A stretch of 64,000 nt of DNA. Source: Stegostoma tigrinum (taxonomy: Eukaryota). The position numbers and the translations under genes were made by a program. Location: positions 29,741,020 through 29,805,019 of the forward strand of contig NC_081386.1 in the NCBI RefSeq assembly GCF_030684315.1, read 5' to 3'. The notes under the pieces are model-generated. The model was given only the letters and a program-made list of their open reading frames with translations. It searched no databases and was not told the DNA's origin. Below, one piece after another: positions 3,001 through 45,805 of this stretch. The first letter of the stretch is position 1, and every line of letters begins with the position of its first letter.

Positions 3001-5874
3001 GAGCATTCAGTTGGGAAGCACTGAAACTCGTATAAATTGTCTCCACCCAGGGATGAAGGCAGCCTGTACTTCCAGTTTATGACCAGTGACTCTGTGGAAG
3101 TGTGGGCAACATGGGGTGCTAGATGCGAACGGGCTGTCTTCTAGCTATTCACGTTAGGCTTAAAAAATAAGGCAATTCAGTAGGGGCTGCAAAAACAGAC
3201 TACAAACCCAGAAAAAGTTCATCCAATGAGATAAGTGGGTAATCACGATTCCCACTGGGTTGCAGTTGGAGACAGTATCTCTAGTTACTCAAGTACTTTT
3301 GACTGCAGTTCTATTACTTGTGCTGACCAGCTTGTAGAGATAAAATTAAGAATGTTCCATAAAATATAATCAAGATTATACAAGACATTTTGGCACTAAG
3401 ACGATGAAGTAAGCAAGAAACAAAAATTAAAACACTAGCACGAGTGAGAGTTCTAATAATTCAGGCAAAGAAATATTTCCTTTTAAAAAAATAAAAAAAA
3501 GAAAGAAATCAAGGCATTCCTACAGACAAAGTCAGGACAATTTCACACCTACCTATATCTTAATTTTCAGTACAACCATTAGGTTTGCAGCTCTCTATAA
3601 ATTGGTGACCATTGTTCCCTGTAGGTTTAAGAAAGTACGAAGACATGACAATTTGTATTTGCTGTCGTATTAAGGCTATAGGAGGAAAGTAGAGAGCAGA
3701 AGAAGAGCACCTAACTAGACAGAACTTACGTAGAATATAGCGAGATGAATGCCGTCTGCCACGCTGCAAAATTCTACAATCCTAATACCATAATAGTCCT
3801 ATTCTGCACAGTTTTCCCTTCCCCATTCTCTGATAAGGAGCAATTTTATGCTACAATAATAGTGGAGGCGTGTTTGGAAACTATACAACAAGTTAGAGTC
3901 CCAGAATATTTCCAAGAAAGGTTGGAAAAAAAAATCACCAATTAAAAGACAAAGAACACACTCGTCAGCAGGCAAAATTGGGAACAATCCTTTATGTCTT
4001 CAAATATTTTCTAAAAATTGACATGCAACTTTAAAAGGATTAAGATTGATATTTAATTAATTAAACTGATATTGGCTGGGAACTGTTTCATCGCCCCTTC
4101 TTTCACACCGTTACCCTCTAAAATAATTGCATTGATTCACAAATGCTTCTGGAGGTTTTTATTGCCATCCTTGTAACTTACTTTAGCCACAAGATTAGCC
4201 ACGTAAAAAGGTCCCCATGCCCACAAACATATTCCCTTTTACATCTCAGCCAACAGGAAACTTGGATGAATCAAGTAAAAATTAAGTCAGACTCTTTCAT
4301 TGCTTAATCAACAGAGATCTCTCAATTCTGCATTTCCACCAAAAAAAGTGGTTTATCTTTCCAAAGTTCAACCTTCAGTTACAGGACTTTGAATTTTTAA
4401 AATACATATTTCTAGCTGAAAGTAAAATTTCCAAACATAAATCTAAACAATAAAATCAATTATTAGAAACAAGTTCAAAAGTGTGATCTGTATTCCTCCC
4501 ACTGCTCAAAAATTAGAGAACTGGCACCAGCATGGATGTTGGAGAGCACAATTATTTAGGCTTTGACACTACATTTGAAGGAGAGAGTGTGCAAGTGAGC
4601 GAACGCAGGAGTGTGACAGCGCAACAGAAAGAGACAGCAGATGGATTTACTAAAGCAGCAACAGATTCAACAAATGAAGCATGATATGGTTTTATTCCAC
4701 TGGCATTCTAGTTGGGAGGATGGTTATTTTCTCCATTTTGTTCCAATGATTTAAAGCAGGTAACATGAGCCAAGGAATCAGACTTATGGGCGCCTGAATG
4801 TTTGCAATGAGGAACTAATCTCAACCTTCAAAACAGCCAAATACGTATTACACTGAGTGTAGATGTTTTCCAATTGCTGCTCTGCCCCGTGTAAAAGACC
4901 TTCACAACCTCGTTCGTCCCTACGTTCTTTCGTGAGCTATGAACCTTTCATATCTGTGAAATAACAGGAATTTAGAGTCAATAGTGAGATATTCTAGACA
5001 TTTTAAATACTAAAACTGCTAACCTGAGATTCATATCCTCAAAGTATTATCACTATCATATAGAGCAAGCATCAAAAGTAGGGCAGTCTGCTGGTAAGTT
5101 ATATATTTGTTTTAATCAACTCAGCCAGTGAAGATACTAATAAAGCATAATGTAAGCATCTATGAACTAAAATAATATTTAAATTATTTGCAATTCTTAA
5201 GCTTTATTTTTGCTAAAGCTATTCAGTCACAGAAACACAATGAATAGTCAAATCCTGCAGCTATTGAAAAAGACTGTCAAAAGCTTTCATTTTTAAGACT
5301 TTGCAGATTAGAAGGTACACTATAAACCTAACCCGGAAATATAATTTATGGTCCCACTCAGTAAGCCTACCTAAAACCCACAAGGGAACAAACAGATAAA
5401 TATTGAAAGATAATTCAATTCATAGATGCTTAACGTTGTACTGCATTGTGCTGTGTAGTGGTGCCAAGTTTAACCCACATTATATATCAAGAAAGAGTCA
5501 CCTTTAAAGTAGTCTCAGGTGATTTCATTGGAATAAGTAAAAGTATTTCATTTAAAAAGTTATAACATAAAACAAGATATGGACCAGAGCCCTCACCCTC
5601 TTTCATAATTTGTGCTCAGAGGTTTCAACTGTGGAAAACAGGAAGATAGGGTCTTGGGTTAAAGACTCTCAGTACAGTCAGTACTGGGCTAACAGCAGTA
5701 AAACCCTACATTTCACAGTTTTGCCGAATTTGAAGTTACATGTGGATTCTAAATCTAAATTGAACAAAGCAACAATAACTGCTGTATTTTTCAACCAGTG
5801 TAGCAATCTTAAAAAAAAAAGTCCAGCTGCATTAACAGAATCAGAATTGGTTAAATAAAACAAAGTAGTAAAAC

Positions 5875-6060
5875 GAAGAAATGCAGATGCTGGAGATCGG
5901 AAATTGAAATTGAAACAGAAACAGAAACAGCTGGAAAAACTCAGCAAGTCTGGAGCATCTGTGGAGAGAAAGTAAACGTTTGAGTCCGATTTCTAATAAA
6001 AAGTCACCAAACTTGAACAGTTAACTCTGCTTCCTTCACACAGAAGCTGCCAGACCAGAG
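5875..6060. mobile_element. Family A fold-back mini-element
   Basis: Inverted-repeat arms gctggaaaaactcagcaagtctggagcatctgtggag / cacagaagctgccagacc. Confidence 0.7.
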
Positions 6061-7875
6061 CTGGCCATTTGTTGACACTGCCTCACCAATGATTTTCAAA
6101 AAAAAAGGTTAGGCATTTCAATAGTAAGGAATAAGCAAAGTAAAATTAAAAACAGCATGGTCCAGATTTCCCACCTATTAACTACAAAATAAATATATTA
6201 AATAAATAAGTTTTCTAGATTACCAAGAACAATTTTAAAAAATACAGTATTTCTGTATTTCTTGCTCCATTTCAAAACGTTGATAATGTAGGGGAAACTA
6301 AACGTTGCTGAAGACAGAGACACTGCTGAAACATTTCACCACATCCTGATCAGGACAAACTTAAAAATGCTAAATTTCAAAGGACTGGGTGACAAGTCTC
6401 ATGTTGCTTTCTCCTTGGAAACATCTCGACCAATCAGTTTCAACTTGCCATCCAGTATGGTCTCAAATTTCCATTTATTTAAAAATATTTCTTGATAGGA
6501 CCCAGGCATCAACTATGATCTCACTCTGAGCAATATCAATATGACTGCAAACGGATTTGAAGAGTTAATATGCTAACTGTGCCAACCAGTTTTGATAATC
6601 ATACACAGTGTTGCAATACTCCAATACATTTATTCACTAAGGCTTTTTTTTGTCAAATGAGAAGAAATATTTGAGTGCAGCAGGCTAAAAGGGAAAATAC
6701 AACCCTTTGTGACCTGAACACAGCCTCCTTGAAAATAACAAGCTGGATGCACCAATAACAGTGTATAGGGTCTAACCATGCAGAACACATTTGGCTCAAA
6801 CAAAAGTTATTAGCCAGTAAAATATTCATATTGTATAAGAACAGAACTCTGGTGTATTTTACGCAAGTGTCTGATTTACAGACAGGTCAGGCACTTACGT
6901 AACTAAAGCATTCACCTTCAGCATCCACGCAGGCTTCTAGAATCTATGCTACACTCTGGTCCTTTTGACATTCCGGACAATTGCATTTCAAAACAAAATC
7001 AAATTACTCAGTGAAGAATCAGATTGGAGATCTGCCTGACCAGTTATTTACTGGATAAACTAGCTGCACCATCACAGGAGTCACAAGTACACCAATACAA
7101 TTTGTGATTTTTATATCCTCTGTTTAAAAAAATGGATCCATGGTTTGAATAAAAAAGTGTACTGCCAGTACTTTCACTGGTTCTGATCGGTACACGTCGG
7201 ATGCACTAATAAGTTATAAAGCGTTACACTGTATTAACACTTTGCATTTCACATTTGTCATACAAAATTTTCTAACATCTCCACACATTTAGCATCTTTA
7301 GAATCTATTAAAACAGCCCACAAAAAACAGAAATCTGACCAAGCTAAGATTTGTTCGGCAGAAGGTTTTGCATGTACTGCAAAGTGAACAATGAATAAAC
7401 GTCAGAAAGGGAAGGCGTGCCACATTAAACAGGCACAAGCCCAAACATCTAATGACAGCGTTCCATAATTAACTGGGTTCGAATCCTTAAAGAGCTGACA
7501 ATGCTGACGAGGGGGCGAGCTCTGATTTATGACTTTATACAACCACAGCACCAGAAACAGCAGATTATCACCTGGTGTTATGAAAGAAGTCTTTAGAAGA
7601 TAGAGTTAACTCAACCCAACACGTGAAAAAAATTTGTTTGATCTTTTACAAATAAACTTCTGTGACTTATTTCCAGAAGTTTGTTTAAGCCACCTTCCAA
7701 TATGTCAAACCATTTGACAGAAGCATTGCATACAAAACAGCATGGTTGTGGAAAGAAACAGGGAAAGGTAAGAAAATAAACCTAAAAATGGGGCAAAAAT
7801 CAATTCTACAAAGCAATACATTGCAGACATACCTAGTACCAGTTTCATAAAGAATCATCTGAGCTACTGAGAATG

Positions 7876-9336
<1,461 letters not shown>

Positions 9337-18990: not shown

Positions 18991-19049
18991 AGGCCAGGCC
19001 CATCCGCAAGCCCCACCAACCAGCCGTCCCCAGCCGGGGCCCGCTCCTA

Positions 19050-19650
<601 letters not shown>

Positions 19651-21264: not shown

Positions 21265-22218
21265 TAGCTTTTGTGCTCCTGAGATGCTGTTTGGCCTACT
21301 GTGTTCATCCAGCTCCACACTTTGTTATCTTGGATTCTCCAGCATCTGCAGCTCCCATTATCTCTAAACAGTGTTTGGTGCCTGTTTGCCCTGCCACATG
21401 ACTGTCAGCCACTAAATGAATCTCAAAGTTCAATATCACGTGTGCCACCTGGGTCCCATTTCATGAAAGAGGAACATTTTGCAGTGGATGCTTCAACAAA
21501 TGCCAATTTCTACTGTCCTCCCCCCCCGACACAATGATCCAATATGTGAGGTTAGCAATCTATTCCATTGGAAGAGAAATCACAGCTGAACAGAAACTGA
21601 TCCTCACTGAAAGGCTACAATAACTGGGACAGCCAATGGGGGATAAAGATGCTGACTGATTACTTCCAAACTGAATGGTGAGAAAGGTCAAGGGATAAGA
21701 GTTTACACTGGGTTCAAATGTCTTCATGGCCCATTGATCATACCTTTCTACAAACCTAATGCTGGTCTCTGATGTCAACCAGTTAGCTTTTAGCCCAATG
21801 TCTCAGGAACTTTCTTCATTCATTTGCAGGATGTGGGTACCACGAGCTGGACCAGTAGTTACTTCCCATTTCTGGTTGTCCTTAAAGGTGAAGTGCCTTC
21901 TTGAACCTCTGTGGCCCATGTTCTGTAGGGACAGTGATAATGGGAACTGCAGATGTTGGAGAATTCCAAGATAATAAAATGTGAGGCTGGATGAACACAG
22001 CAGGCCAAGCAGCATTTCTGTAGGGACAGTGCTGCATTTCCAAAGCAGAATGGTGAGTGCCTTGGAGGAGAATTTGCAGGCGGTGGTATTCCCCCTTGTA
22101 CCTGCTGTCCTTGTCCCTCTCAAAGATGACCCTTCTGGGCTTGGAAGAGAAGCCGAGTTGCCATCCCTGGATAATGAAATGTGAGGCTGGATGAACACAG
22201 CAGGCAGCAGCCATCCCT
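21265..22218. mobile_element. Three short family B termini (21265-21366 +; 21937-22015 -; ~22169-22209 -)
   Basis: Shared gctggatgaacacagcaggccaagcagcat unit. TSD TTCTGTAGGGACAGTG at 21921-21936 and 22016-22031; GCCATCCCT at 22160-22168 and 22210-22218. Confidence 0.8.
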
Positions 22219-22560: not shown

Positions 22561-22703
22561 GTTCGGGCTCTTAATCTGCTCCTAATGGGGAGGGGCAAGA
22601 GACTGGGACCAAACTCAACCTCTCGCTAGAAGGGAACCCTTTCCCCCCCAGAGGAAATAGAAGACACAAACGGAAAAGAGCAGACAGGGACAAACCCCAA
22701 AAC

Positions 22704-22753
22704 ATGCGGAAGCGACAGCAGTCTCCTGTGCAAACTCCCTTCTTCGTCCCCAG
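22704..22753 (+). CDS. CLN6: CLN6 coding exon 1
   Basis: aacATG then MRKRQQSPVQTPFFVP-AG|gtttgg. Phase 2 matches exon 2; basic N-terminus like CLN6; lies behind a small CpG-rich patch. The donor is non-consensus. Confidence 0.75.
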
Positions 22754-25700
22754 GTTTGGTCCTTTTATATTGGTTTACATTGTACTCTTTGCTGTTCTGT
22801 TTTATTTGAAAGGAGCGAGGCCACGGCGGCTTGCAGGCCTGTCAACTAAGAAATACTTGTGTGAATGTGTTTTCTTCTACAATACATCATCCTCCCTTTG
22901 TTTAAAAAAACAACCCTCTCTCTCGCACCGACCAGTCTGAAGACCCCAAGATTGTTTCCAATGCTTTACACGCGAAGTTCTGCAGTGCCGACACGTTGTT
23001 GAAAGAAGCGCCAAATTGTGCACAGGAAGCTCCCATAAAGCAACAACGACCAGATAATCTGTGGTGTCTGTGCGTGGGGGTTGGTTGTTTTGAGGGATGA
23101 CTATTGGCCCAACCAACCTGCTCTGCTTCATAAGTTTCAAGGGGAATTTCTTTCTTTCCCCACCTGCTCCCAGGTGGGATCTTAATGTTTACTCTTCCTT
23201 CTGAAAGGCAGCACTTCTGTCAGTGCAGCACTCTCTCAGGACTGTATTTACTGTAAGCCTAGGTTTTGTGCATCAGTCCAAAAGTGGATCTTGAACTTTA
23301 AATTATCTGAGTGCTGGTCACTAATTTACAATGTTTAGTCGTTGCTGCAGAGTTAAACTCCTCAGCATCAGCAGAGTCCTAATGTTAACTTGCACTTTTG
23401 GAAAATAAAATCAGTACGGACTGTTTCTATATCAGTATCAGTGGCATTGATATTGATTCAACTCCAATAGGATTTAATTCTGAATCTTTTTAAATCAATT
23501 TTCCCACTCCCTTCATAATGTGCAACTCCCAAGGTTGGTAGGAATGGGATAGAAGCAAGAATAACAATGCTGGGAACGTTCATGTTTTTCACTTCTCCTG
23601 TGATGCTGGGGATGAAATCGGCTTTGCTTGAAAGCAGCAGATAATGGACTGTTCAGAGAGAACCGGGCAGGCTACATAATGGATAGTTAATGTTCTGCAG
23701 CTCCTGTGACAATATCACCTGAGACCAATTCTGCCCACCTCAGACTTTTACTGCACCTGTGTTCACTCCCTTCCTGCCCTTTGTGACCGTTGTCTATGGG
23801 GAAGCACAGACAGGCCGTGTCTTGGCTATTCAACTGTGGGTGCCATCACAAACACTAGATTATCAGAAATAAACAATAACATACTAGGGAAGAAAAACAA
23901 GTGTTGATTGTGAGTTTAAGGAAATGCAAATTATTCTGTTTATTCTTTCGGCTCCTAGTATACCATAAGTGTATTTCCAATAATTCAAAAACCACAAATT
24001 TGCAGGAGTGGACCATTTGTTGCCCCCCCCCCTCCCTCCCCCAAAGGCTGATTTTTCTGCCTGTTCTCCCCCCCCCAACCCATCCATCAAGTCAATAAGA
24101 TTGTGCCTTTGACTTCTTTCCTGCCTTGGGTAGGTCTAACGCTGCCTTGAAGATGTTCATTGACTGAACCTTCACTGTTCTCAAGTGGTGAATTCCTAAT
24201 ATTAACAAACTTGTAAGATCCTCCTCTGTTGGAAATCAGGTTCCTTACGCTGCAACTACAGCCCTAATTCTAGATTGTGTGCCCCCCCCCCCCCCAAACA
24301 AGGGGAAATGTCCTCTCTGCATATACCCTGTCAGTGTTCTTATGATTTCATGAGTTGATGTTCACACTTTTTTCCGCGTTAAGATAAATCTTTATGTTAA
24401 TTGAAGCATATTCAAATGTTAATTGTGCCAGTTTTCTGTTGACGAAGTTTGCTCGCGATATTTCAATCTGTTTTTCCAGCAGAAACCTAGCCAACTGGTG
24501 CTCACCTGTATCAAAGTTCGTTTTGTGCCACTGAAGTGGTTTAACAGTCATGCAACTACTCATGTAATAGTGCCAAGGATATTCATCCCACTAGAACGTG
24601 AGAGCTACTAGTAAAATTAATATGCTGTTGAATTTATCCGGCTGACTCACATGATACAAATGAAGCTGTCTGCGCTGTATTGTAATGTTGTAGTCTTCTG
24701 CCTTGCTAGCAACACATCCAAGGTTAAAACGTGTGAATGCCAGCTTGTTTCTCAGCGCATGTGTGGATAATACCAGAAGCATTTACACACAGCTCTGTAT
24801 TATCCCTGTCATGTTGAAAAATGATAGATATTGTTTTGGGGCTAGAGGGCTCAGTAAAAGTGGGAACGGGGGACTGCATTGGATGATCAGCCATGATCGT
24901 TTTGATGCAGTAGGCTCAAAGGGCTGAATGGCTTACTCCTGGCTTCTATGTTTCTAATACCTGGGGAATACAGTGTTCCAACCATCAAGAGTCTTCTAGC
25001 CTGGGCGCTAACTAAGCAAAGTGTTGATGTCCAATAAATAAGGATGATTAAATGCATTTGGCACGTGCATTTTGCATGATTTACATCCTGACAGCTTTTA
25101 TATTCCCCTGGAAGAGGCTAATTGGGCTTGATGGGGGATGAAACTTGGCAAATTGTTCTGGGTCCCTTTGGACAGTTCTGGGGTTAAGAATCTCTCACTT
25201 GGCAGTTTGGACTTAGCTGAGCAGTCTGAGGGTGCTAGGGGACTGCAGCTATTTGACACTTTATAGTAACATGTTGCCAAGTAAGGTCAGCAACATGGGT
25301 TTTAAAGATCAACTGCGTGTTGAAAGTTAGCATGGCAGAAACATTGTTATTGTTTTTTAACTTTTTTTTAAAAGGATAGTAAAATTCACTGTTTGTCCTG
25401 AGTGCTATTCATTTTAGCTTGTTAAATTCAATTGTCATTGTGAGAATTCAAGAAGAATGCTCAAAAAGTTGTCCCTGTGGAGCTTAGCCAACTTGGAGCT
25501 GATCAACGAGCCGACCACAAAAAGTCTATTCTCTTAAGCCACTGGGAAATTAAAGAGTTTGGAAAACAATGATTTCTAAATGCCAGAACTGGATATCAAG
25601 TTTCTGATGCTCACTACTTATTTGTAACTCGTATACAATTTAATAGATTTCAAAACACTTAAATGTGACTTACTTTTCAGTGAGTGTTTGTGGTCAATGA

Positions 25701-26334
25701 ATGTGACAGGAATGGTAATGCGTTAACCTTTATGATGTAAGCAGTGGTGATGAGATTGTCATGTGACTACAAAAATGGAGCAGACAGATTCTTACTCCAG
25801 GGATTGTTATTGCAAGTGGAAATCTGTGACGAAGATGCCCCGCAATTATTTGCCTGAATTTGTTTCCTGTCTATCCTGAAGGCTGCACTGTTACGGTGCA
25901 ATTCTACAGGCCCTTGGGGTACTTTGTGTACATGGTCAGTCTTTTATATAAACGTAGACAGTGAAATACCTAGGGTTTGGTGACTTGAGACGTGTGTTGA
26001 TTTCAAGATTCAGTCAACTTGGCAGGGTGGGACTGAGCTATATTCACCAGGGAGTGATGAGGGGCAAAGACCGCACACACATACCAACGGAAACTTCAAA
26101 ATTAAACGGGTTGCAATGCAGGTGGTGCTTACTGGCCACAGTGTGAATGGAAGATTGACCTGTCACCTTCACCTCTGCCACTGAATTTTGGCAGAAACCG
26201 CAATTGATCTCATCTTGTCTCAGCCCAACCTTTTCCACTCCCACCTGGGATCTGGTTCCTAATGTTTCTCTCCTGGTTGAGATTAACTAGCCTAATGTGA
26301 TAGAGAGTGGAAAAACTCACCTGGTCTTGTAGCA

Positions 26335-26610
26335 TCATAGAAACCCTACAGTTTGGAAACAGGCCCTTCAGACCACCATGTCCACACTGAACTTCACAGC
26401 ATCTCATCCACCAAGAACCCACCTAATCTACACATCCCTGAACACTCATGGTAATGTGGCATAGCCAGTCCACCTAGCCTGCATATCTTTGAACTGTGGG
26501 AGGAAACTCACGCAGACGGGGAGAATTGTGAAAACTCCAGTCACCCGAGGGTGGAATCAAACCTGGGTCCCTGGTGCAATGAGGCAGCAGCGCTAACCAC
26601 TGAGCCATCA
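26335..26610 (-). mobile_element. HE1-like V-SINE
   Basis: tRNA-derived head (ggctcagtggttagc...ggtttgattcc), V-domain core and CR1-type tail. Confidence 0.85.
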
Positions 26611-27561
26611 TGATGTCCAAGTTCGTTGAGAGGGTGTGCAGATCTTTGCAAAGTCATCTTTTGGATTTGAAATATTGACTTTCTTTCTCCACAGACCTTG
26701 CCAGACCTGTGGAGATTTTCCAGAACTTTGTTTTTATTTTGGATTTCTAGCATCCGCAGTGTTTTCCATTTATGAATGTAGTTGGAACTGCAAAGCTTCC
26801 GATCTGTGGACTAGTAGTTGCGTGATTTCTGTAAATATCAGGACCTGAGAGAGTCACAACCAAGTGCTTTCAGCTGTGCTTGGCTGCTCTAGAGTTGAAA
26901 GTAAAGCTCAGGGAGATTAAAGGATTGATGTGCATTATTCATAGTACAAATAGGGGTGCTTTTGAAAACTACAGAACAGATCTGTCATTTCTTCTGATAT
27001 CTAGAAGTTTGCAAACTCCTCATCTCCTTAGTCTCACCACAATATCCAGCCTGAGGTTACAATCATTTGAGTCGCAGTTATTCCCTTGGCCTCTTGTCCA
27101 AATAGTTTAAAGGTTTCATTTCGAAACATGTTAATTTTCCTTTTGAAAACGGTTGTAGATGCTGCTTCCACTATTGCTAATCTACACCCTGACACGTCTG
27201 AAAATAGGTTTTCCCCTAACTGCCCATTTGTCCCATAGCCTTCTACAGTTTATCTCTCATCCTAAAGCTAAGACTCTGACACTCCAACTGTAATTGTTGG
27301 CGCAGGACAGGCTGGAGGTATCAGACCTGGGGAGTCTGTGTCAGTGAGCTGCAGCACACACCACACATCTGTTTAATATTTTACAGATTTATATCCTCTG
27401 CTTCCTCCTCCCAAAATATCACTCCAAGTGAGATTTTACTGGAGTTAAGCATGATTGATCAGGGCCTAGGATGGAGTGTCTCTCAGTGATGCTTCAGAAG
27501 AGCAGTAGGAGCCTTTTTTGTTAAAAGAAACTTTGGCTAAGAATAAACTGTGTTTTGTCTT

Positions 27562-28496
27562 AGAGACCACTCTCTCCGTGACTCCCTTGTTCGCTCCACA
27601 CTGCCCTCCAACCCCACCACACCCGGCACCTTCCCCTGCAACCGCAGGAAATGCTACACTTGCCCCCACACCACCTCCCTCACCCCTATCCCAGGCCCCA
27701 AGATGACCTTCCACATTGGCAGATGTGCAGGTGAACCTCTGTTTAATGTGGTATACCGCATCCACTGTACCCGGTGTGGCTTCCTCTAATTGGGGAAACC
27801 AAGCGGAGACTTGGGGACCGCTTTGCAGAACACCTCCACTCGGTTCGCAACAAACAACTGCACCTCCCAGTCGCAAACCACTTCCACTCCCCCTCCCATT
27901 CTTTAGATGACATGTCCATCATGGGCCTCCTGCAGTGCCACAATGATGCCACCCGAAGGTTGCAGGAACAGCAACTCATATTCCACTTGGGAACCCTGCA
28001 GCCCAATGGTATCAATGTGGACTTCACCAGCTTCAAAATCTCCCCCTCCCCCCACCGCATCCCAAAACCAGCCCAGTTCGTCCCCTCCCCCCACTGCACC
28101 ACACAGCCAGCCCAGCTCTTCCCCTCCACCCACTGCATCCCAAAACCAGTCCAACCTGTCTCTGCCTCCCTAACCTGTTCTTCCTCTCACCCATCCCTTC
28201 CTCCCACCCCAAGCCGCACCTCCATCTCCTACCTACTAACCTCATCCCACCTCCTTGACCTGTCCGTCTTCCCTGGACTGACCTATCCCCTCCCTACCTC
28301 CCCACCTATACTCTCCTCTCCACCTATCTTCTTTTCTGTCCATCTTCGGTCCACCTCCCCCTCTCTCCCTATTTATTCCAGAACCCTCACCCCATCCCCC
28401 TCTCTGATGAAGGGTCTAGGCCTGAAACGTCAGCTTTTGTGCTTCTGAGATGCTGCTGGGCCTGCTGTGTTCATCCAGCCTCACATTTTATTGTCT
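27562..28496 (+). mobile_element. 5'-truncated Penelope-like element (family B) with GIY-YIG remnant and terminal hammerhead motif
   Basis: VVYRIHCTRCG..IGETKRRLGDRFAEHLHSV..PVANHF. 13-bp TSD TGTGTTTTGTCTT at 27549-27561 and 28497-28509. Confidence 0.9.
28402..28433 (+). ncRNA. Minimal hammerhead ribozyme motif (Penelope type)
   Basis: ct-CTGATGA-agggtctaggcct-GAAA-cGTC-ag: conserved core, short stem II, palindromic ACGT in place of stem III. Activity untested. Confidence 0.6.
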
Positions 28497-28522
28497 TGTG
28501 TTTTGTCTTTGTTATTTTGTAG

Positions 28523-28637
28523 GAATGTAGGAAAGGAGCCTGAGGTCCTGGACAAAAAACCTCAGTTCCACCTGGATCTTTGGTTTTATTTCACTGTGCA
28601 GAACTGGATCCTGGATTTTGGCCGTCCAATTGCAATG
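28523..28637 (+). CDS. CLN6: CLN6 exon 2
   Basis: tttgtag|G...QFHLDLWFYFTVQNWILDFGRPIAM|gtgagt, 115 nt. Confidence 0.96.
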
Positions 28638-29352
28638 GTGAGTCCTGAGTTGACAAATTTGTATTGACTGAATGGAATCCTTGGACTTGGAAAAGCATGC
28701 CCAGTGACTACCCAGAGCTAATGCTGCTTCTGTAGAGAAGGCCGAGAGGCAACCCAACAGAGGCCTTTAACGTTCTGAAAGGGTTTGGTACACAATAAAT
28801 AGAGATGATGATCCCATTTTTTTGGGGAGACCAGAACTCAGACCATCACTATTAAACAATTAGTGATAAAATTAATAGGGAATTCAGGAGAACCCTCCAC
28901 ACAGCAGTGAGAATGTGGGATTTCCTACCACAAGTTGTAGAACTAAAGCGTATTAATGCATTTAAAGCAACTGGATAATCATGAGGCCAAAGAAATAGAA
29001 GGATATGACAATAGTGTGAGAACAGGGAATTTGTGTTGAGCAGACCTTAGCATGGGCTGTGTAGTCTGAATGATCTGGTTCAATGCTGTAGGTTGTGTGC
29101 TATCCTTCAGGAAAGTGCACTCTGTCAATACTGGGTGCGTTTAGTATGATGGCTCTGTGTTAAATAAACTGCCTAGTTTAACACAGGAAAAGTAGCTTTT
29201 TTTTGACGAGTTGTACTCTGACCCCATCAGCGTGGGAGGTGAGTTGTAGGATCTGGGATTGTGTTGAGGGGTAGAAGATGCTTCTGTTTATACTGTCCAT
29301 GCCATTTTACCCATATGAAACTGAGCAGGGTCCGTTGTGTGCTCGTTCATAG

Positions 29353-29451
29353 ATTGTTCTTCCAGTCGAGTGGTTTCCATTGAATAAACCAAGTGTCGGT
29401 GATTATTTTCACATGGCCTACAACATCATCACACCTTTCCTCCTCCTGAAG
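29353..29451 (+). CDS. CLN6: CLN6 exon 3
   Basis: catag|[33 protein letters not shown]|gtaagg, 99 nt. Confidence 0.96.
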
Positions 29452-30359
29452 GTAAGGTCTTTGCTGTCTATCACAGAGGTTACAATGGGGTCTTTGTGTC
29501 CCTATCGAATCCATGCCTTTGGCTTAATGATAAAGTGCGGAATTGAGTGTGGATCTGACCCCAGAGGAGCTCAAAGCTTCCAAAGTTGATTCTTGATCTT
29601 TTTTGTTGCATTAGATTTTTGCATCGGGGGTTAATCCTGGAGATGCCATGACTTAATGGGTTGGCTTCCCCAAAAGCATCCAGGATTGAGATCCTTGTGT
29701 TAGGTAGAAGGACTGGCAAGCCTGCTAAAAATGTGGCAAACATTACATTTCTGCTAAGTGACCAAACCCTGGCTATGTCTGCCTTTACCAATTGGTCTTT
29801 TAGGAGGGAGAGCACCCAGCCATGTGCTGACTGCCTCCGACTGAATTTAAAGCTCGTGGGAGGGTAGGGACCAAGAACTGACTTTTCTATGTTGCCATGC
29901 ATAGTTGAATAGCTTGTTGTGACTCCCACAGTCTAGGCTTACACATGCAACCATCCTGAATCAAACAATGTGTCTTTCCTCCAGTCCTAATTTCTCAGGA
30001 TCAGGCTGTACCCTTGTTTAGATTGGTCTGTACACAAATTACTGTGGTTTGCCACTGCCTTCTACAAGGTGGCTGACCAGGAAACTCTTCCTCTTAACTA
30101 CCTGCCATCAGGCTTTTCCTTGGCCAACAAGTCCTGGTGTGGGATCGAACCCAGAGCCTCTAGCACTGAGGTGGGGATCCAACCCCAAGTGCCACAAGAC
30201 CTACTGCATCAAACTGTAGCCCTTTCAGAAAAGAGGGGAGAATAGAGAAATGGCAGCAGAAACAGACATGTTGAAGATCAGGAAGAGGTGATCATTGAGC
30301 TCTCAAGGGCTTATTTCCAGAATATGTTAGTGTTTACTCAATCTTGAATATTTTTGCAG

Positions 30360-30548
30360 CTTATCGAGCGTTCTCCCAAGACACTCCCTATCTCAGCGGT
30401 GTACATCTGTATAATAACATTTGTCATGGGAGCAAGCATTCACCTTGTTGGCGATTCAGTGAATCATCGTCTGATTTTAAGTGGTTACCAACTCCACTTG
30501 TCTGTGCGTGAAAACCCAATTATGAAGGACTTGAAACCAGAAACGTTG
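30360..30548 (+). CDS. CLN6: CLN6 exon 4
   Basis: tttgcag|[10 protein letters not shown]...[15 protein letters not shown]...KPETL|gtaaga, 189 nt. Confidence 0.96.
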
Positions 30549-31430
30549 GTAAGAGCCATTGCATTGATAAATGTTTTCAGTCTGATCAAACCCATGAAAG
30601 TTTTGCTCTGTTCAGGATACAGGGATATGCAGTGAGTTTGACATTTGTCTTTTTAATCTCTTTCATATCCCTGATTTTCATTGCTCCATTATTGGCAGCT
30701 ATGCCTTTAGCATTCAGGATCTGAGGTTTTTGATCATGTGTTAATTCTTTAGGACATATTACAAGCTTAAACCAGACTTAGTAACTGTTAAATTGTTTTA
30801 TCGTTACACCGTGAATGATAGTAAGGCTACGGACCAACGTGCTCAGAGCAGTCCAATGTCCAACCTCTTAGCAGAACATTAGGATGTGGCACTCTGATTG
30901 TGTTTGCTTTGTGAAGTGTCTTTTGATGGTTTACTGCATTAGTGGTGCTACACAAATGTTGATAAATTGAAAGTAGCTGCTTGTTTGGCTTTAAGGCGCC
31001 AACTGGATGAGGAGGGGGTGTTGGATAAACAGAATGCTGAAAATTCCAGCAGATGAGACAGAATCTGTGGAGAGAGGAACAGAGTTAACTTTCCTCAGAC
31101 TTTTCAGAACAATGAAAATTCACCAGTTTGAAATGAGTTAAATCTCAGTCCAGTTCTGTAGAAGTCCTGAGTGCATGACATCAACTAATTGGCATTAATC
31201 GAGGTCCATAATCTCATTGGGTGTGTCTCTGGATGACTGGTGAAGGACATGATAAATGGTATTATTGGAGGCGATCTCCTGTGATGGGTACAGGGCCAGG
31301 GAAGAGGGAATCTTCACAATACGCTGGAACTGGTGCCCTTGAGTACAAAATTCGCTCAACCTGACTATTGTACCGAAGAAACACAGCTGGGCTATTGTCA
31401 AAGTTTATCATTTTTTGTTTAAATCCACAG

Positions 31431-31486
31431 ATTGACTCGTTTGAACTGCTGTATTACTATGACGAATCCTTGGGCCACTTAATGTG
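31431..31486 (+). CDS. CLN6: CLN6 exon 5
   Basis: ccacag|IDSFELLYYYDESLGHLM-TG|gtaagt, 56 nt. Confidence 0.96.
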
Positions 31487-33328
31487 GTAAGTAATTTGAA
31501 GGAGAAGTAGCTTCCTATGGCATGTACACGAGGCAGCCAGAATCAGCTCTGATGGCTCAGTGGTAACCTGTTGTGTTTCCCCAGCACAGACATCCTGTCA
31601 GTGTTCCCAGCTCTTGACAGGTTCCTCCTGGGTTAGAGAATGGGTAGTGAGTGGGCTGCCTCCACCAGTGACATCTGGACCTGCTTGAGAATTCGGTTGC
31701 TCTCTCTGGTCACTCAAATGTCTCAGTCCTACACATGAAGGATGATAACTGGGTCATTTGGTTCCTTTTTGAATCAATTCCTTCAGGACTCAACTAGTCC
31801 CATAAATGGAGAAAAGCTGGGGGTGAGTAACAACTGAAAGGTAATAACCTGGTCAGACTGTGCCAATTGTGTGAGTCTGTGTGCTCCATATATTGAGTTT
31901 ATCCTCCGATTCTACATCCCCTGCAGTGTCCAAGAGGTTACAACACAATCTTTCCAACTGTTCCATTGGAAGCGAGATATTGTTTAAAATGCCTGCTTGT
32001 TTCAGTGCAGGTATTGCTGCAGGATGTTGAATAGAGCAACATCTATACAGATTCATTAACGTTTGATGACTGTGTGAGAAACTTGGGCGTAACTATCAAG
32101 TGAAGCATTTCATTTAAGCTTATGAGCTGGCACTTGGCCCGCATCACCCTCCATTAGTTTTGTTGTTCTCAGACTCTCGTCCGTCCTCCCCCCACCTCCA
32201 GCTTATTCCTTTCATCCTCTGGGATCCAGTTTCGAAGCAGCAAAAGAACACATCTTGTAATATAGATAACACGGTGGTGTGCATGGAGATGAATACACAC
32301 CACCCTAGTGAAGTATGATTGCATGTGATATGTAACCTATTTGAGGATGTTGGTGCTTCATGTGTAATCTATTATCTCGATTTTGTTTTGTTTGAAGTGA
32401 AGTCTGTAATTTAGGCTTTTTTCTTGAAGGCACAGTCCTGTTCTTTTTTTTTAAGAAAATGAATATCTCCTCTGGGAATGTAAAGGACAAACACTTTTTT
32501 TTTGTATTACCTGGCATTTAGCTTCAATTGGCGGCTTTGCTCATCTGTCTAATGCAACAGTCATTTTGTTATTAGTCACTGCTGGAGCTGAGATGACCAT
32601 GAGTTGCGGGGGCCTTGGTGCACCTTGGAAACTGCTGTATTTCTATTAGGAGTTCAGTGGGAGGGACTCACCTTTGACCCTGGTCTGTGCTAAATGAATT
32701 GATCCCTTCGATCTCAAAGTCCTTGGATCGAGAGGAGAAAAGAATAGCTGTCCAGTATTCACCCTTAATTGCTGGAAAGTGTGTACATCGCTGTACTCAC
32801 ACTTGAGTGCATGTCTCACTGTCTTTTGTGCATACTGAATGAAAATTGGGTCAGATCAGCAAAAATATGCTGTAACTTGTAGAGTCATAGATGTACGGTG
32901 TGGAAACAGACTCTTTTGGTCCAACTCATCCACGTTGACCAATTATCCTAACTTAATCTAGTCCCATTTGCCAGCATTTGGCCCACATCTCTCTCAGCCC
33001 TTCTTATTCACGTACCCATCCAGATGCCTTCTAAATGTTGTAACTTTACTCGCCTCCTCCACTTCCTGCAGCAGCTCCTTCCATATATGCACCACCCTCG
33101 TGTTTGAAGATCCTGCCACGACCGCTAACTTGTGTGAAAACATGCTCCATGCCAGGAGATTTCTGACTTCATAAAGCAGGTTGATATTGCAAAGAACCTT
33201 TACTTGATCCATGATGCCTGAGTAATCATTGCATCTATTTGTGAGGCTGCAGTTCAAGCTGCTACTTTGGTTCTGGGGTATGAAGAAAAGCTTGGTTGAC
33301 TAATTCCTTGTGTCGATTTTTGTTTCAG

Positions 33329-33451
33329 GTATGTTCCGTTCTTCGTCATTTTCAGTCTGTATTTCACTGGGTGCTTCACTCGCTGTAACAGAGATAGCAG
33401 AATGCCCCTGTCAGCATGGCTGCTGCTTGGGCCAAGTAGCCTGTACTACTG
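33329..33451 (+). CDS. CLN6: CLN6 exon 6
   Basis: tttcag|G-YVPFFVIFSLYFTGCFT...LLLGPSSLYY-TG|gtaaga, 123 nt. Confidence 0.96.
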
Positions 33452-34439
33452 GTAAGAGACAAAGTGCTTAACAAAGAACAACCACAACTTTGCCTTTCAG
33501 TCTATGGGAATGCCGTGTTCGGGGTGGGGTTTGGGGGGTGCAAATCCCACTTTAGGGCTTGAGCTTGAAAACCAAGACCCTCCCCATCAGTGCAGGCCTG
33601 AAGGAATGCTGCGCTGTCAAGAGGTGACAATAAACTGAGGGCTACTGTGGTGGATCCAAAAGATTTAAATAACACTGTTTCAAAGAAGGGAATGTGATGG
33701 ATGATATTTACCCTTCATTCAAAAACGTGGAAACATGTTATCTGGTGATACCCCTTTTTTGGGATTTTGCTGTATTGCCATTCAGCTGCCGTGTTTCCAA
33801 TATTAGACCAGTGACTACACCATGAAAGTACTCGATTAGCTGTGACGCTGGAGACACCTGCCAATCTAGAAAAGCACTGAGTTAATTCCAGATTTACTTT
33901 AGTCTTAAATGTCACCGTGATCAGTTCTGGAATATGTGTACAAGAATGAGGTACTAAGGTGCTGGTTGAGTCATTCAAAATGGCCAGCCTAGCCTAGAGA
34001 ATGACGGTTCATAAACTCATGTTTGTAGTTCAAATTCAGTTTGTTTTGACTAAATAAATAATTCTAGAAATGAAAACAGCCTCCATTTAAGGAAAAAGAT
34101 CATGTGTCCGCTGTTCACAAATAGTTCAACCTAAAAGCAAACCTACTGGCTTTACCCACTCTAGCCTATATGTGACTTCAGTCCCATACCCCTTTAATTT
34201 TTCACTGAAAAGGCCTGGCAAGCCACTGGTTTATATTGACCTTCTAACCTGGTGCTGTCTAGAAGGTTGGGTCACTACCACCTTGTCGCAAGATAGCTGT
34301 TTGTGCAGAAGATCCATTCAACTCAAATTAATTCTCCTGAAGGATCTTCAGTCTCCAGTACAGGCATCCAGTTGATCCTGAAATGATTCTAAGGGCTTTT
34401 CTTCTACTTGTTTATTGGGCTGAAATTTATTCCCATTGG

Positions 34440-34960
34440 AGACCATAAAATATATGAGCAGAATTAAGCCATTTTGCCCACTGACTCTGCTCTGCCATTG
34501 GATCATGGCTGATATGTTTCTCAACTCTAGTCTCCTGCCTTCTCCCCATAACCCTTGAACCCCTGACTAATCAAAAACTTTCTATCGCTGCCTTAAAGAC
34601 ATCAATGACCCGACCTCCACAGCTCTCTGCGGCAATGGGTTCCACAGGATATCCACCTGGCCGAAGAAATTCCCCCTCATACCAATTCTGAAGTGTCATC
34701 CCTTCACTCTGTGGTGATGCCACCTCAGATCTTAGTATCTCATACTAGTGCCAACCTCCTCTCCACATCCAATCTATTCAGGCCTCTCGGTATCCTGTAA
34801 GTTTCAATGAGATTCCCCCCTCGTCCCTCTCTACTCCATAGAGTAGAGATTCAGAATCCTCAACTTCTCCTTGTAAGAGAAGCCCTTCATCACTGTCTTT
34901 TGAACTTCCTCTGGACTCCCTGCTGTGCCAGCACATCCATCCTTAGATACCAGGTGCAGT
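34440..34960 (-). mobile_element. CR1 3' fragment in CLN6 intron 6
   Basis: Typical CR1 3' end (gatcatggctgat...ccccataacccttg). Confidence 0.75.
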
Positions 34961-35251
34961 CAGTCTGTTTACAACTGTACACTGCTATCACCCCTGAGTC
35001 AGTAATCCTCCTGTTCTCTCCTCCCCACTCCCCCAATCATTTATATCTGAAGAAGAATCCTTGGAGTCCATCCTAAAATGTATTACTTGTCCTAATGTTA
35101 CAATTGCATTTAAGCCATGTTATAATCTACTACCTTCAGAAGGGGAAGGAATAAGTGATGGGGAGTGGAATTTATTTGAAGTCCTTTGTAAAATTCTCAG
35201 AACCTGATTGTAAGTGAATGTTACAGTTTAGTCGTTGACCTCTTTCTTTAG

Positions 35252-35522
35252 GTATCTGGTGACTGAGGGTCAGATCTTCGTCCTCTATATCTTTACCACT
35301 TTTGCAATGATTGCAACAGTCATGCACAACAAGCGTAAAGGACTGGTGATGGACAGTAATGGCCTCTTTTTATTTTACTCTTTCTGCATTGCTCTGGTCC
35401 TCATCTCTGCCTGGGTCGCCTTCCTGTGGAACGACAAAATTCTCCGCAAAAAGTACCCTGGCGTCATGTACGTTCCAGAGCCTTGGGCGTATTATACCCT
35501 GCACATCAAGAAAACACTGTAG
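35252..35522 (+). CDS. CLN6: CLN6 exon 7 (terminal coding)
   Basis: tctttag|[10 protein letters not shown]...DSNGLFLF...[26 protein letters not shown], 271 nt; total CDS 903 nt = 300 aa. Confidence 0.96.
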
Positions 35523-37520
35523 CTTATGTTCTGGGTCTTGTTTCTGAAGCCATTTTAGTCAACTCTCCAACTTCCCCCAAGTAACTGATAGTTGAGCGTC
35601 CCTTTAGGGTGCCGCTGTACTCTCCACACTTCAGTTCGCAGTGGTTTCAGATAGGCGTCGATGCAAATAGTGGCAGTATAGTTTGTGCCAAGTGATGCAA
35701 GGCACCCCATTCCCCCCATCAGGAAGCAGATTTTGCTGCTTTCAAGTTTGCACTGACTGCAGTATAACTCCAGTTTAGCCCAAGTGATCTGGGCAATCCA
35801 CAGGATCATCTTCTCACCCCACCCTTTAAGAGCTCACGAGAACATCTGATGGAGTCTTTCAAAAGCCAGGAGAGAGTAGCCACAACCCCTGCTGCATTTC
35901 TGCTAACAGTAGGTCAGATGGGAGTACTCCAAAAAAGACAGCACAAGCCAGATGGGCCCAATGGTCATTATTGATGCTGCGATCCTGTGACTGACGGTCT
36001 CTCATGAAATTAAAGCATCCGTGCCAGAAGTTGCTACTGATGAAGTTTGGTGATGCAGTCCTAAACCAGTTCAACCAACACTGTCTTCCTGCTGGTGTAA
36101 CCAATGCAGTAGCCTAGTTTCTTGACTTTGGGTTAAAGCAGCAGTTGGAATGGAGAGCAGAGATATGTGGCCAGATTGTGACTGCATCTAGTAGTCTGAA
36201 AGGGGAGGCAGTGATTTTGATGAAAAATAAATTTGGGGGAGTTGGCAGTTTAGTGGTAATGTTACTGGACAATCTATTATGCCAAGCCAATGATTTGGAA
36301 GCATGCATTCAAATGGTGGAATTTGAATTCAGTAATTTGGAACAAAGCTGGTGTAATGACAATCGTCTAACCCAGTCAATTTGTCATCTGGTTTTGGAAG
36401 GAAAATCTGCCTTCATTAGCTGGTCTGGCCTCCATGTGACTCCAGATTCAGAACAATGTGATGCTTAACTGCCCTTTGTGTGCTTGGGGGTGAACAGTAA
36501 GTGCTGCCCTAGCCCACAACACCTTCATCCCATGAATGAATGAAGGAAAACAATATCAGGAGAGCTGACTCTTCCACGATGACACTCAAAGAAGATTTAC
36601 CTAATGTGTTCACTCTCACTATATTGTTGAGCTTGTTTGGAAACTAACTTTATGTTGTCACATCTTTCGCTTTGTGGGATTTGGTTTTGAATTTTGTGCT
36701 GCTTTTTTTGTTTCTAAAAATGTGAACTGCTTGAGAATGTAGAACTTGCAATTTAATACCAAGTTTGCTCCATGGCATTCAGCTAAACCAGTAGAACCCA
36801 AAAATCTGTGCATCTGCAATTCTAATTGAATTCTTGGGAACGTATGCTGAAAGTCCTTATTTCCACAATGGGCTGAGACCCCTTGGGGCCTGTTACACCC
36901 AGCTAATCCGTGTCCTATAAACAATAAATGGCTGTGACAGAAGTGGAGTTACTGTCCTGCGTCAAAATGCAAAATGTGTCTGCCTTTTATGATGATGTAT
37001 TCTTTTAAAATGTATCAAAATGGAAGGCGTTTTATTTACTGAGCTTTAACCTGGAACATGCACTCCTGGAAGTAGGCCAAATTGTTTGAACTAATATTTA
37101 AGCGGATGAGGAGGATTTTCTGCTTGGTAAATTTCAACATCTATTTTGCTGATGGTATTAATTGTGTGAGAGTCACAGAATGTCTGATCACTCATGAATA
37201 TGCCATGCAATAATCCTCATTTTATTTTCTTGGGCAATTGAGTTCAGCTTTGGAGACTTTAAAAATTGTATAAAAACTGAGGAGTTCCCTTTATAATTCT
37301 TTGTTTCACTTGAGTTGTGATTATATTGGATAGATTCAGTACCAGCTGTATCCAGATCTCTTAGCAGGAAGTCTATAAATGACTGTTACATGAAAGCCTT
37401 CACATGATCAAACTGACGGCAATTCCTTCTGAAGAGGATATTTAAGTCCCTTTGGGCTGATTCAGTGTTTGGTTTCTGTTTATTTGTATCTTGAATTATT
37501 TATTGTGCATTTTACTAATC

Positions 37521-39834: not shown

Positions 39835-40735
39835 ATACATCAGTCATCAGTGTCCCTCACAGATGAGGATAGCTCTCTTCCACACTCAGGGTGAGTCTGT
39901 AGGTGGTTACACTTGGGGCAGGTGATGGTCACAGGAGGAGGTGGATGGGGCATTAGTGCAGCAGCACGCTCCTTTCCCTGTTTTTGCTGGGCTTCCGCTT
40001 TTTCATGACAGCAAGTCTGGAGGTGTTCGGCCCTTCCCAAATGCTCCTCTCCACTTTGGACAGTCTTGGGCCAGTGATTTCCAGGTTTCTGTGGGAATAC
40101 TGCACTTTGCCAATGAGGTCTTAAGGGTATCACTAAAGCACTTCCTCTGTGTCCACCTGGGGCTCAGCTGCCATTTTGGAACTGGGAGTGGAGCATCTGC
40201 TCAGGGACCCTCCTGTCAGTCATGCGGATAATATTGCCCACCCTTGATTGGCAACAGTGCCTCAAAAACGCTGGTGCATCCGTCCTCCCATGGGAATTCG
40301 CAGGACCTCGCACAGGCAGTATTGGTGGTACGGCTCCAGCACCTCGAGGTGTCTGCTATAGACAGTCCATGTCTCAGAGGAGAGCAAGAACCACCATAGC
40401 TCTGTAAACCATGATCTGGATATTGAACCTGATGTTCTTGAAGACCCTTTTCCAGTGGCTGAAGGCTACGCTAGCACACAGGAGGCAAGATAATAAAATG
40501 TGAGGCTGGATGAGCACAGCAGGCTCAGCAGCATCTCAGGAGCACAAAAGCTGACGTTTCGGGCCTAGACCCTTCTTCAGAGAGGGGGATGGGGTGAGGG
40601 TTCTGGAATAAATAGGGAGAGAGGGGGAGGTGGACCGAAGATGGAGCGAAAAGAAGATAGGTGGAGAGGAGAGTATAGGTGGGGAGGTAGTGCTGGATCT
40701 CTTCATCAATAGCTGCTCTGGACAACAGGACACTC
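39835..40735 (-). mobile_element. RTE-like LINE 3' fragment (interrupted by Penelope at 40487-40690)
   Basis: IDEEIQH...FMVYRAMVVLALL; C-terminal WKSLAQDCPKWR and CPKC motif, typical of the RTE clade. Confidence 0.7.
40487..40690 (-). mobile_element. Penelope family B 3' fragment with hammerhead motif (40551-40582), nested in an RTE-like LINE
   Basis: Near-identical to 28290-28496 in reverse; reads CTGAAGA-a-GGGTC-ta-GGCCC-GAAA-CGTC on the minus strand. Confidence 0.85.
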
Positions 40736-45259: not shown

Positions 45260-45805
45260 GAGTTTTGAGAAGATTTGTAGCTCAACAACACACTAAAACA
45301 GCAGCTAATGAACTTAAAAGACCCTATACAGACAACAAGCAAAACGAACGTCATTTACAAAATACATTGCAAGAACTGTGACAAACATTACATTGGACAA
45401 ACAGGCAGAAAGCTAGCCACCAGGATACATGAACATCAACCAGCCACAAAACGACATGACCCACTATCACTAGTATCCTTACATACAGATGAGGAAGGAC
45501 ACCACTTTGATTGGGACAACACATCCATCCTAGGGCAAGCCAAACAGAGACACGCATGAGAATTCCTAGAAGCATGGCATTCCAACTGGAACTCCATCAA
45601 CAAACACATTGATTTGGAGCCCATCTACCATCCTCTGAGAAAAAGAACAGGAAATGACATCACCAACCCAAGGAAACCTAAACAGATAAATAGAAAGCGG
45701 GACATAACACCAGCGCTTTGTCGGAGGCTTACTGATGATGTTACCTAGAATGGTGACGAAACGTCTGAAAACGAACCTTCCAGCTCAGCGAGCAAACTCA
45801 CATCC
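45260..45805 (+). mobile_element. Penelope-like element (family C, Poseidon-like) with inverted 5' terminal fragment
   Basis: GIY-YIG NVIYKIHCKNCDKHYIGQTGRKLATRIHEH with a premature stop at 45557-45559. 13-bp TSD ACTGACAAAGGGT at 45247-45259 and 45806-45818. Confidence 0.9.
45729..45768 (+). ncRNA. Minimal hammerhead ribozyme motif
   Basis: tta-CTGATGA-t-GTTACC-tagaat-GGTGAC-GAAA-cGTC-tga: 6-bp stem II, 3-bp stem I, GUC cleavage triplet ending at 45765. Confidence 0.7.

Follow-up and report, generated by a model that had tools for sequence, protein, structure and literature searches.

The closest described relatives of the insertion analysed here are Penelope-like elements (PLEs) of the Neptune and Nematis type. 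As described in PMC8557442, these elements have a tandem pLTR-ORF layout, a hammerhead motif in the pLTR, an optional tail of ~33 nt, inverted 5'-truncated partners and a cysteine linker before the endonuclease, described as CX2-5CxxC. PAc, a Poseidon element of Anolis, has two 3' ends ~30–40 nt apart, AT-rich targets and an ORF that starts inside the hammerhead; this hammerhead gave no protein-free cleavage and no RNA-seq ends at its site, and the element's own protein can switch it on (PMC11167929). The minimal hammerheads of metazoan PLEs occur as dispersed single motifs and combine a CUGANGA core, a bulged base before helix II, a GAAA and a palindromic AC-GU for helix III with a helix I of 4–5 bp. 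According to PMC4209133, their G10.1-C11.1 pair is highly conserved, a variant with a 2-bp helix I is known for D. virilis, a single minimal motif did not cleave and dimers cleaved at a low level. Two further systems concern effects on a host gene. CPEB3, a neuronal gene, has an HDV-like ribozyme in the sense orientation of an intron that precedes a coding exon; this ribozyme is active and affects the CPEB3 mRNA (PMC10274809). Transposons can also contribute to predicted branch-point sequences, wholly or in part, as in human pseudoexons of F8 (LTR78), GPR143 (L1) and CEP290 (AluY); the same source places 90% of human branch points at 19–37 nt (PMC7951965).

Here, we analysed a stretch of 64,000 nt from the Stegostoma tigrinum genome (hereafter the window) in which such an element lies directly before a conserved exon of CLN6. 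We think it quite likely that this is a young, 5'-truncated copy of an abundant Penelope-like family inserted 26 nt before CLN6 exon 2, that splicing proceeds normally, likely through an adenosine of the element's unmodified tail, and that the hammerhead, predicted to be inert, has no effect that matters. Coordinates of the features are collected in Table 1.

Table 1. Features at the CLN6 insertion, in window coordinates. Branch positions are counted with the G of the acceptor AG as -1.
Feature	Position	Strand	Remarks
CLN6 exon 1, coding part	22704..22753	+	donor joins 28523
Displaced candidate branch region: CTAAG (A27540, -35 before the insertion), ATAAAC	27537..27547	+	TTAAGAATAAAC in organism B
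5' copy of the target-site duplication (TSD), 13 bp	27549..27561	+	exact repeat; single copy at the empty site of organism B
5'-truncated Penelope-like element: ORF end (Cys linker, GIY-YIG region) and pLTR, with the family's short 3' end	27562..28496	+
Micro-inversion between inverted arms CCACATT (27711-27717) and AATGTGG (27745-27751), inside the GIY-YIG coding region	27711..27751	.
Candidate cryptic acceptor: TACTAAC (28234-28240), AG-free pyrimidine stretch, TTCCAG ending at 28381	28234..28381	+	predicted
Minimal type I hammerhead motif: CUGAUGA 28404-28410, bulged A, helix II 28412-28415/28420-28423, GAAAC-GUC	28402..28433	+
Element tail, holding all adenosines within branch-point range: A28483 (-40, CCTCAC), A28485 (-38), A28490 (-33, TTTTAT)	28479..28496	+
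3' TSD copy (28497-28509), remaining host pyrimidine tract and AG, intact	28497..28522	+
CLN6 exon 2, 115 nt	28523..28637	+	Pfam CLN6 E 8.9e-13; acceptor TAG 28520-28522, donor GTGAGT

The gene is CLN6, as a preliminary description of this DNA had proposed. Besides the Pfam match, a seven-exon model (exons 1 and 2 as in Table 1, then 29353–29451, 30360–30548, 31431–31486, 33329–33451 and 35252 to the stop) gives an open frame of 300 amino acids that is identical at 300/300 residues to XP_048419132.1 from Stegostoma tigrinum. The modelled protein differs from that of the whale shark at 2 positions and from a Chiloscyllium entry at 9, and the exon 1-2 junction is in register in all 12 proteins of equal length that we compared. 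The CLN6 profile had 11 matches in the genome, and the 6 over the cut-off all fall at the present locus.

The insert measures 935 bp, is in sense to CLN6 and is bracketed by TGTGTTTTGTCTT, an exact 13-mer that adjoins both element junctions, extends at neither side and occurs at these 2 places in the 64-kb window when both strands are searched. The 3' boundary of the insert is the short end of its family, with TG as a 2-nt overlap with the family continuation. Upstream of 27562, other family copies carry further element sequence, so the CLN6 copy is 5'-truncated. We also considered a fixed non-autonomous unit starting at 27562 and dropped it: the apparent shared start was the edge of the query, and the copies extend upstream of it.

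An empty orthologous site was present in a related shark (organism B) whose introns differ from the window by ~6%. Single contigs of 5,448 nt (X5) and 457 nt (X12) from this shark link 27533 to 28497 through 14 letters; the corresponding stretch of the window, ahead of its first 13-mer, has 15. In X5 and X15 the sequence TTGTTAAGAGACACTTGGTTAAGAATAAAC stands directly before a single copy of the 13-mer. These observations come from three runs in three studies. The exact repeat at both junctions and the family membership bear out the preliminary description in its reading of a Penelope insertion flanked by a true TSD, and organism B provides the empty site that this description had proposed to look for. 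It had also placed the insertion inside the pyrimidine tract, and on this point it needs correction. The element sits at the tract's 5' edge, and through the duplication all 26 nt of host tract still adjoin the AG; the tract is therefore uninterrupted, and the insert instead parts it from any former branch point upstream.

The copy has diverged little from its family. Relative to the majority of 48 family copies (40 loci), 29 of 935 columns differ and 13 of these differences are private, 8 of them in a small inverted segment (27708–27744), so that ~5 remain elsewhere. Private changes number 1 in 28400–28496 and 0 in 28150–28399, figures too small for a test of selection. Given the empty site and the few private changes, the sequence comparison thus points to an insertion much younger than the split from organism B. 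Within the species, contigs of a DNA run (X1) cross both junctions unbroken, with no empty-site contig among those listed; this is one sample, possibly the assembled animal, and so says little about fixation. The local inversion disturbs the ORF-end reading frame of the insert, and the insert's own 98-aa frame had no Pfam match. Similar inversions are seen in other family copies, and the opposite-strand joint (27710–27751) is present in contigs of all four runs examined, which indicates that the micro-inversion recurs in the family and in relatives.

To what family does this copy belong? The 171-nt end of the insert returned 1,090 candidates, and the 40 that were scored were all 96–100% alike. 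A copy with a long ORF (L038; 670-3435, - strand) has a 922-aa frame with PADKG at 283, KIHK at 362, YIDD at 526 and YIGET at 795, which we take to be marks of a Penelope reverse transcriptase and a GIY-YIG endonuclease, the reverse transcriptase being recognised by these motifs. A linker, CNRRKCYTC (CX4CX2C), stands before the endonuclease at residue 745 of P0001. With the long copy, Pfam gave GIY-YIG at E 0.0032, which lies below its cut-off, and NCBIfam reached E 0.13; neither returned a reverse transcriptase family, and a PDB search gave no match. Of 12 loci retrieved with the 5' part of the ORF, 5 have the insert's sequence immediately before the ORF, in the place of a tandem pLTR. Among 35 distinct copies (41 rows minus 6 duplicates, several with an inverted partner left out at the outer junction), 16 end short, like the CLN6 copy, and 19 end long, the two ends being ~33 nt apart; 7 of the 35, the CLN6 copy included, have exact TSDs of 9–13 bp at both junctions, mostly AT-rich. 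The long-ORF copies L038, L040, L044–L046 and L050 share 98–99% mutual identity over the 5' part of the ORF, which suggests that the family was recently active.

The family is thus an endonuclease-bearing (EN+) PLE, with an ORF in which reverse transcriptase precedes GIY-YIG, a tandem pLTR, a pLTR hammerhead and an optional tail. It has in common with the Neptune/Nematis elements of PMC8557442 all the features given above for that type, the clade being assigned by the linker only, and the CLN6 copy differs from them as a truncated, non-coding 3' end. The paired 3' ends and AT-rich targets recall PAc; in the shark family, by contrast, the first Met comes 166 nt after the start of the hammerhead core (compared with PMC11167929). 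A 28-nt hammerhead pattern had 50,227 and 50,326 exact matches on the two strands of the 3.2 Gb genome, 100,553 in all or one per 32 kb, and 0 for a reversed control. This exceeds the 4,000–9,000 given for coelacanth and Xenopus in PMC4209133, a comparison across different search methods. Nearer to CLN6, further short pieces of this family or of a sister family lie at 40488–40690 (- strand), 21266–21330, 21969–22018 and 22170–22211, the copy at 40580 having the core CTGAAGA. Hammerhead-like motifs of different repeat families, with a longer helix II and variant cores, occur at 45732 (+), 49135 (-), 45807, 51848 and 60112, and probably belong to other Penelope-like families.

The insertion has consequences for where the intron can branch. 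The preliminary description held that a branch point at CTAAG had been displaced. Whatever lay upstream has indeed been moved away, and CTAAG reads TTAAG in organism B, so the identity of the old branch point is a candidate only. In the host sequence left beside exon 2, adenosines occur at -9 and -2 only, and a normally placed branch adenosine must therefore come from the element. From this geometry, the branch adenosine of CLN6 intron 1 is probably element-derived, and U2 would now branch on A28490 or A28483. The same description had taken A28483, in the tail's CTCAC, as the substitute. TTTAT with A28490 fits yUnAy, and in 2,000 sampled folds it was free in 1,804–1,865, as against 62–144 for CTCAC. 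With CTCAC mostly paired and TTTAT mostly free, the folding model makes A28490 at least as good a candidate as A28483. The human pseudoexons with transposon branch points are mutation-activated (PMC7951965), whereas CLN6 exon 2 is a constitutive, conserved coding exon with its own acceptor that likely borrows only the branch adenosine.

We found no sign that the tail was exapted in the sense of having been selected, as had been suggested. The tail is the unmodified default of the family, with CCTCACA in 28/28 copies (a count inflated by the choice of copies for likeness to the tail region), and the copy is too young for a test of selection. Nothing suggests adaptation, and the insertion would have been tolerated by luck rather than selected. 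When random 60-mers from the window were placed before the host tract (20,000 trials), 18–23% gave an in-range yUnAy with no later AG and 49–57% gave UnA. With 150,000–250,000 acceptors assumed, ~70–117 sense copies are expected by chance to end in the 30-nt window before an acceptor. One tolerated case among them is to be expected.

Transcript contigs bear on how the exon is joined. In a same-species run (X13), one contig falls on 28480–28840; it is 2,907 nt long with a depth of 489, matches exon 2 without a single difference, carries 179 unbroken letters before it, up to the end of exon 1, and continues into the start of exon 3. The same two junctions, exon 1-2 and exon 2-3, are present in a run from organism C (X14). 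We took both runs as RNA on the ground that exons are joined; the record of X13 carries no RNA label, and its animal may or may not have the insert. X13 had no contig on the intron side, 28480–28520. The preliminary description had named exon 2 skipping and intron retention as outcomes to look for, and neither appears among the X13 contigs, which join exons 1, 2 and 3. As the contig is unbranched, forms with exon 2 skipped, the intron retained or the exon extended to 28381 did not survive assembly in this sample. Since contigs drop rare variants and do not report transcript levels, and since products that carry a stop or are cleaved would be degraded, minor mis-splicing or cleavage may nonetheless occur.

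The third element feature of interest is the sense-strand hammerhead, which the preliminary description placed correctly at ~90 nt from the splice site: the predicted cleavage, after C28431, lies 91 nt from the intron end. Like the minimal hammerheads of PLEs, the motif has the CUGANGA core, the bulged base, GAAA, NUH and palindromic 15.2-16.2 (here CTGATGA and GAAAC-GTC), and it is likewise one of many dispersed single motifs. It departs from them in two respects (compared with PMC4209133). Helix I is 2 bp throughout the family, in place of 4–5 bp, and the CLN6 copy has T at 28423, which makes G10.1-U11.1 of the conserved G10.1-C11.1; T is found in 8/28 copies and C in 20/28. No Rfam model matched in the window at the gathering score, and minimal PLE hammerheads may be absent from those models. 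For the motif region, folding z-scores (1.14, 0.18 and -0.78) did not reach significance. The active fold was drawn in 0 of 2,000 samples in each of two contexts, folded without proteins or co-transcriptional order. In the lowest-energy monomer and homodimer alike, CUGAUG is hidden by pairing with CGUCAG, the active layout being at -1.7 against -9.5 kcal/mol in the monomer and at -0.3 against -34.2 kcal/mol in the dimer. A loose scan of the CLN6 span (22600–37500) found no second sense core. On these folding models, the hammerhead is predicted to be inert.

Normal joining of exon 2 could be explained without the tail, or could hide a minor fraction of faulty transcripts. If splicing were independent of the tail, the intron would branch on a non-adenosine base of the host tract, on the A at -9 or at a distant site, and deleting the tail would be harmless. 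CTCAC is predicted to be paired and at -40 lies outside the usual 19–37 window, and the pre-insertion flank fails yUnAy, meeting the looser UnA rule, so the CLN6 exon 2 acceptor may tolerate poor branch sites. We nevertheless regard tail-independent branching as quite improbable, since TTTAT is predicted to be free and fits yUnAy at a usual distance, and since the AGs at -46, -75 and -91 speak against a distant site, with no AG between 28479 and the acceptor; branching on a base other than A is, moreover, a minority event. A faulty fraction would arise from use of the AG at 28381 or from skipping of exon 2, with removal by nonsense-mediated decay and a slightly lowered CLN6 output. Both routes lead to a stop: use of AG 28381 would add 141 nt in frame with TGA at codon 23, and loss of the 115 nt of exon 2 would shift the frame to an early stop. 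The cryptic acceptor also has a perfect TACTAAC and no AG from 28214 to 28379, and its 12-mer is the same in 26/28 family copies. An AG-free stretch comparable to these 166 nt, however, arises in 23% of shuffles, the cryptic tract is C-rich where the true one is U-rich, and the deep X13 contig runs unbranched across both junctions with no sign of AG 28381 among the X13 contigs. We therefore consider this fraction improbable. The same stretch could have been the acceptor of an intron in the element's own pLTR, for which no donor was found by eye and to which the 23% applies equally. TTCCAG lies 23 nt before the hammerhead core, which recalls D. virilis, where an intron of the pLTR has its end at helix I.

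The strongest form of the preliminary description, in which an exapted tail and a sense hammerhead together tune the processing of CLN6 pre-mRNA, as the CPEB3 ribozyme does for its gene, seems to us very improbable. The CLN6 motif does resemble that of CPEB3 in being of a self-cleaving type and in its setting, a neuronal gene where it lies in sense in an intron before a coding exon, and its core nucleotides are intact. Penelope hammerheads can cleave as dimers or with element protein (PMC4209133 and PMC11167929), and 100,553 genomic cores could act as partners in trans. Given activation by element protein in PMC11167929 and near-identical long-ORF copies in this genome, occasional cleavage is possible. 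Against a regulatory role stand the short helix I and the G-U pair, the burial of the core in the modelled folds, the lack of a sense partner in the gene and the normal mRNA contig, and these leave the proposed effect of the ribozyme core on CLN6 processing unsupported. The insert is also young and lineage-specific: it is absent from organism B, so that the conservation at an orthologous site that marks a CPEB3-type case is missing, and, with the inversion set aside, ~5 of its 935 columns show private changes. Unlike the active CPEB3 ribozyme (PMC10274809), the CLN6 motif is species-specific, one of 100,000 and predicted to be misfolded, with no effect seen.

We therefore favour the reading that the CLN6 insert is most likely a tolerated passenger. 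By analogy with another Penelope element, the GIY-YIG endonuclease would have nicked AT-rich DNA at the acceptor tract, and reverse transcription would have begun at the inner of two start sites to give the short, AG-free end. The 13-bp duplication would then have left the host tract and AG intact beside exon 2, U2 would branch on A28490 or A28483, and the lone minimal hammerhead would not cleave the pre-mRNA at a relevant rate.

The short 3' end may have a more general property. A preference for AT-rich targets, which includes U-rich tracts, together with restoration of the tract by the duplication would make sense insertions just upstream of acceptors self-compensating, with the short end, free of AG, bringing along a complete branch-point cassette (CCTCAC...TTTTAT); two CAGs come with the long tail. 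Dozens of constitutive shark exons would then depend on Penelope adenosines, with short-ended copies enriched among them. This extension is tentative, and we find it rather doubtful. If true, the turnover of branch points could be followed as a natural experiment with dates attached, and CLN6 exon 2 would be its first documented case. The locus in itself is a clean, dated case of a transposon lodged between a branch point and the pyrimidine tract of a conserved disease-gene exon with no visible harm, and since a close relative has the empty site, it lends itself to minigene work on the ease of branch-point turnover. Neither new ribozyme biology nor altered CLN6 function is indicated. A larger meaning would follow if the cassette pattern held genome-wide, or if intronic Penelope hammerheads were cut in trans with element protein.

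A whole-word literature search found no work on CLN6 in sharks, and searches on Penelope hammerheads, transposons at branch points, Penelope in shark genomes and intronic ribozymes, with subscription journals largely outside their reach, found nothing on the CLN6 insertion locus or on branch points derived from Penelope. Shark hammerhead families may be listed in the supplements of PMC4209133. Elsewhere in the window, a two-exon ankyrin-repeat gene (7876–9336 and 19047–19625, both on the - strand) lies head to head with CLN6. It resembles FEM1B, a putative assignment by name and synteny.
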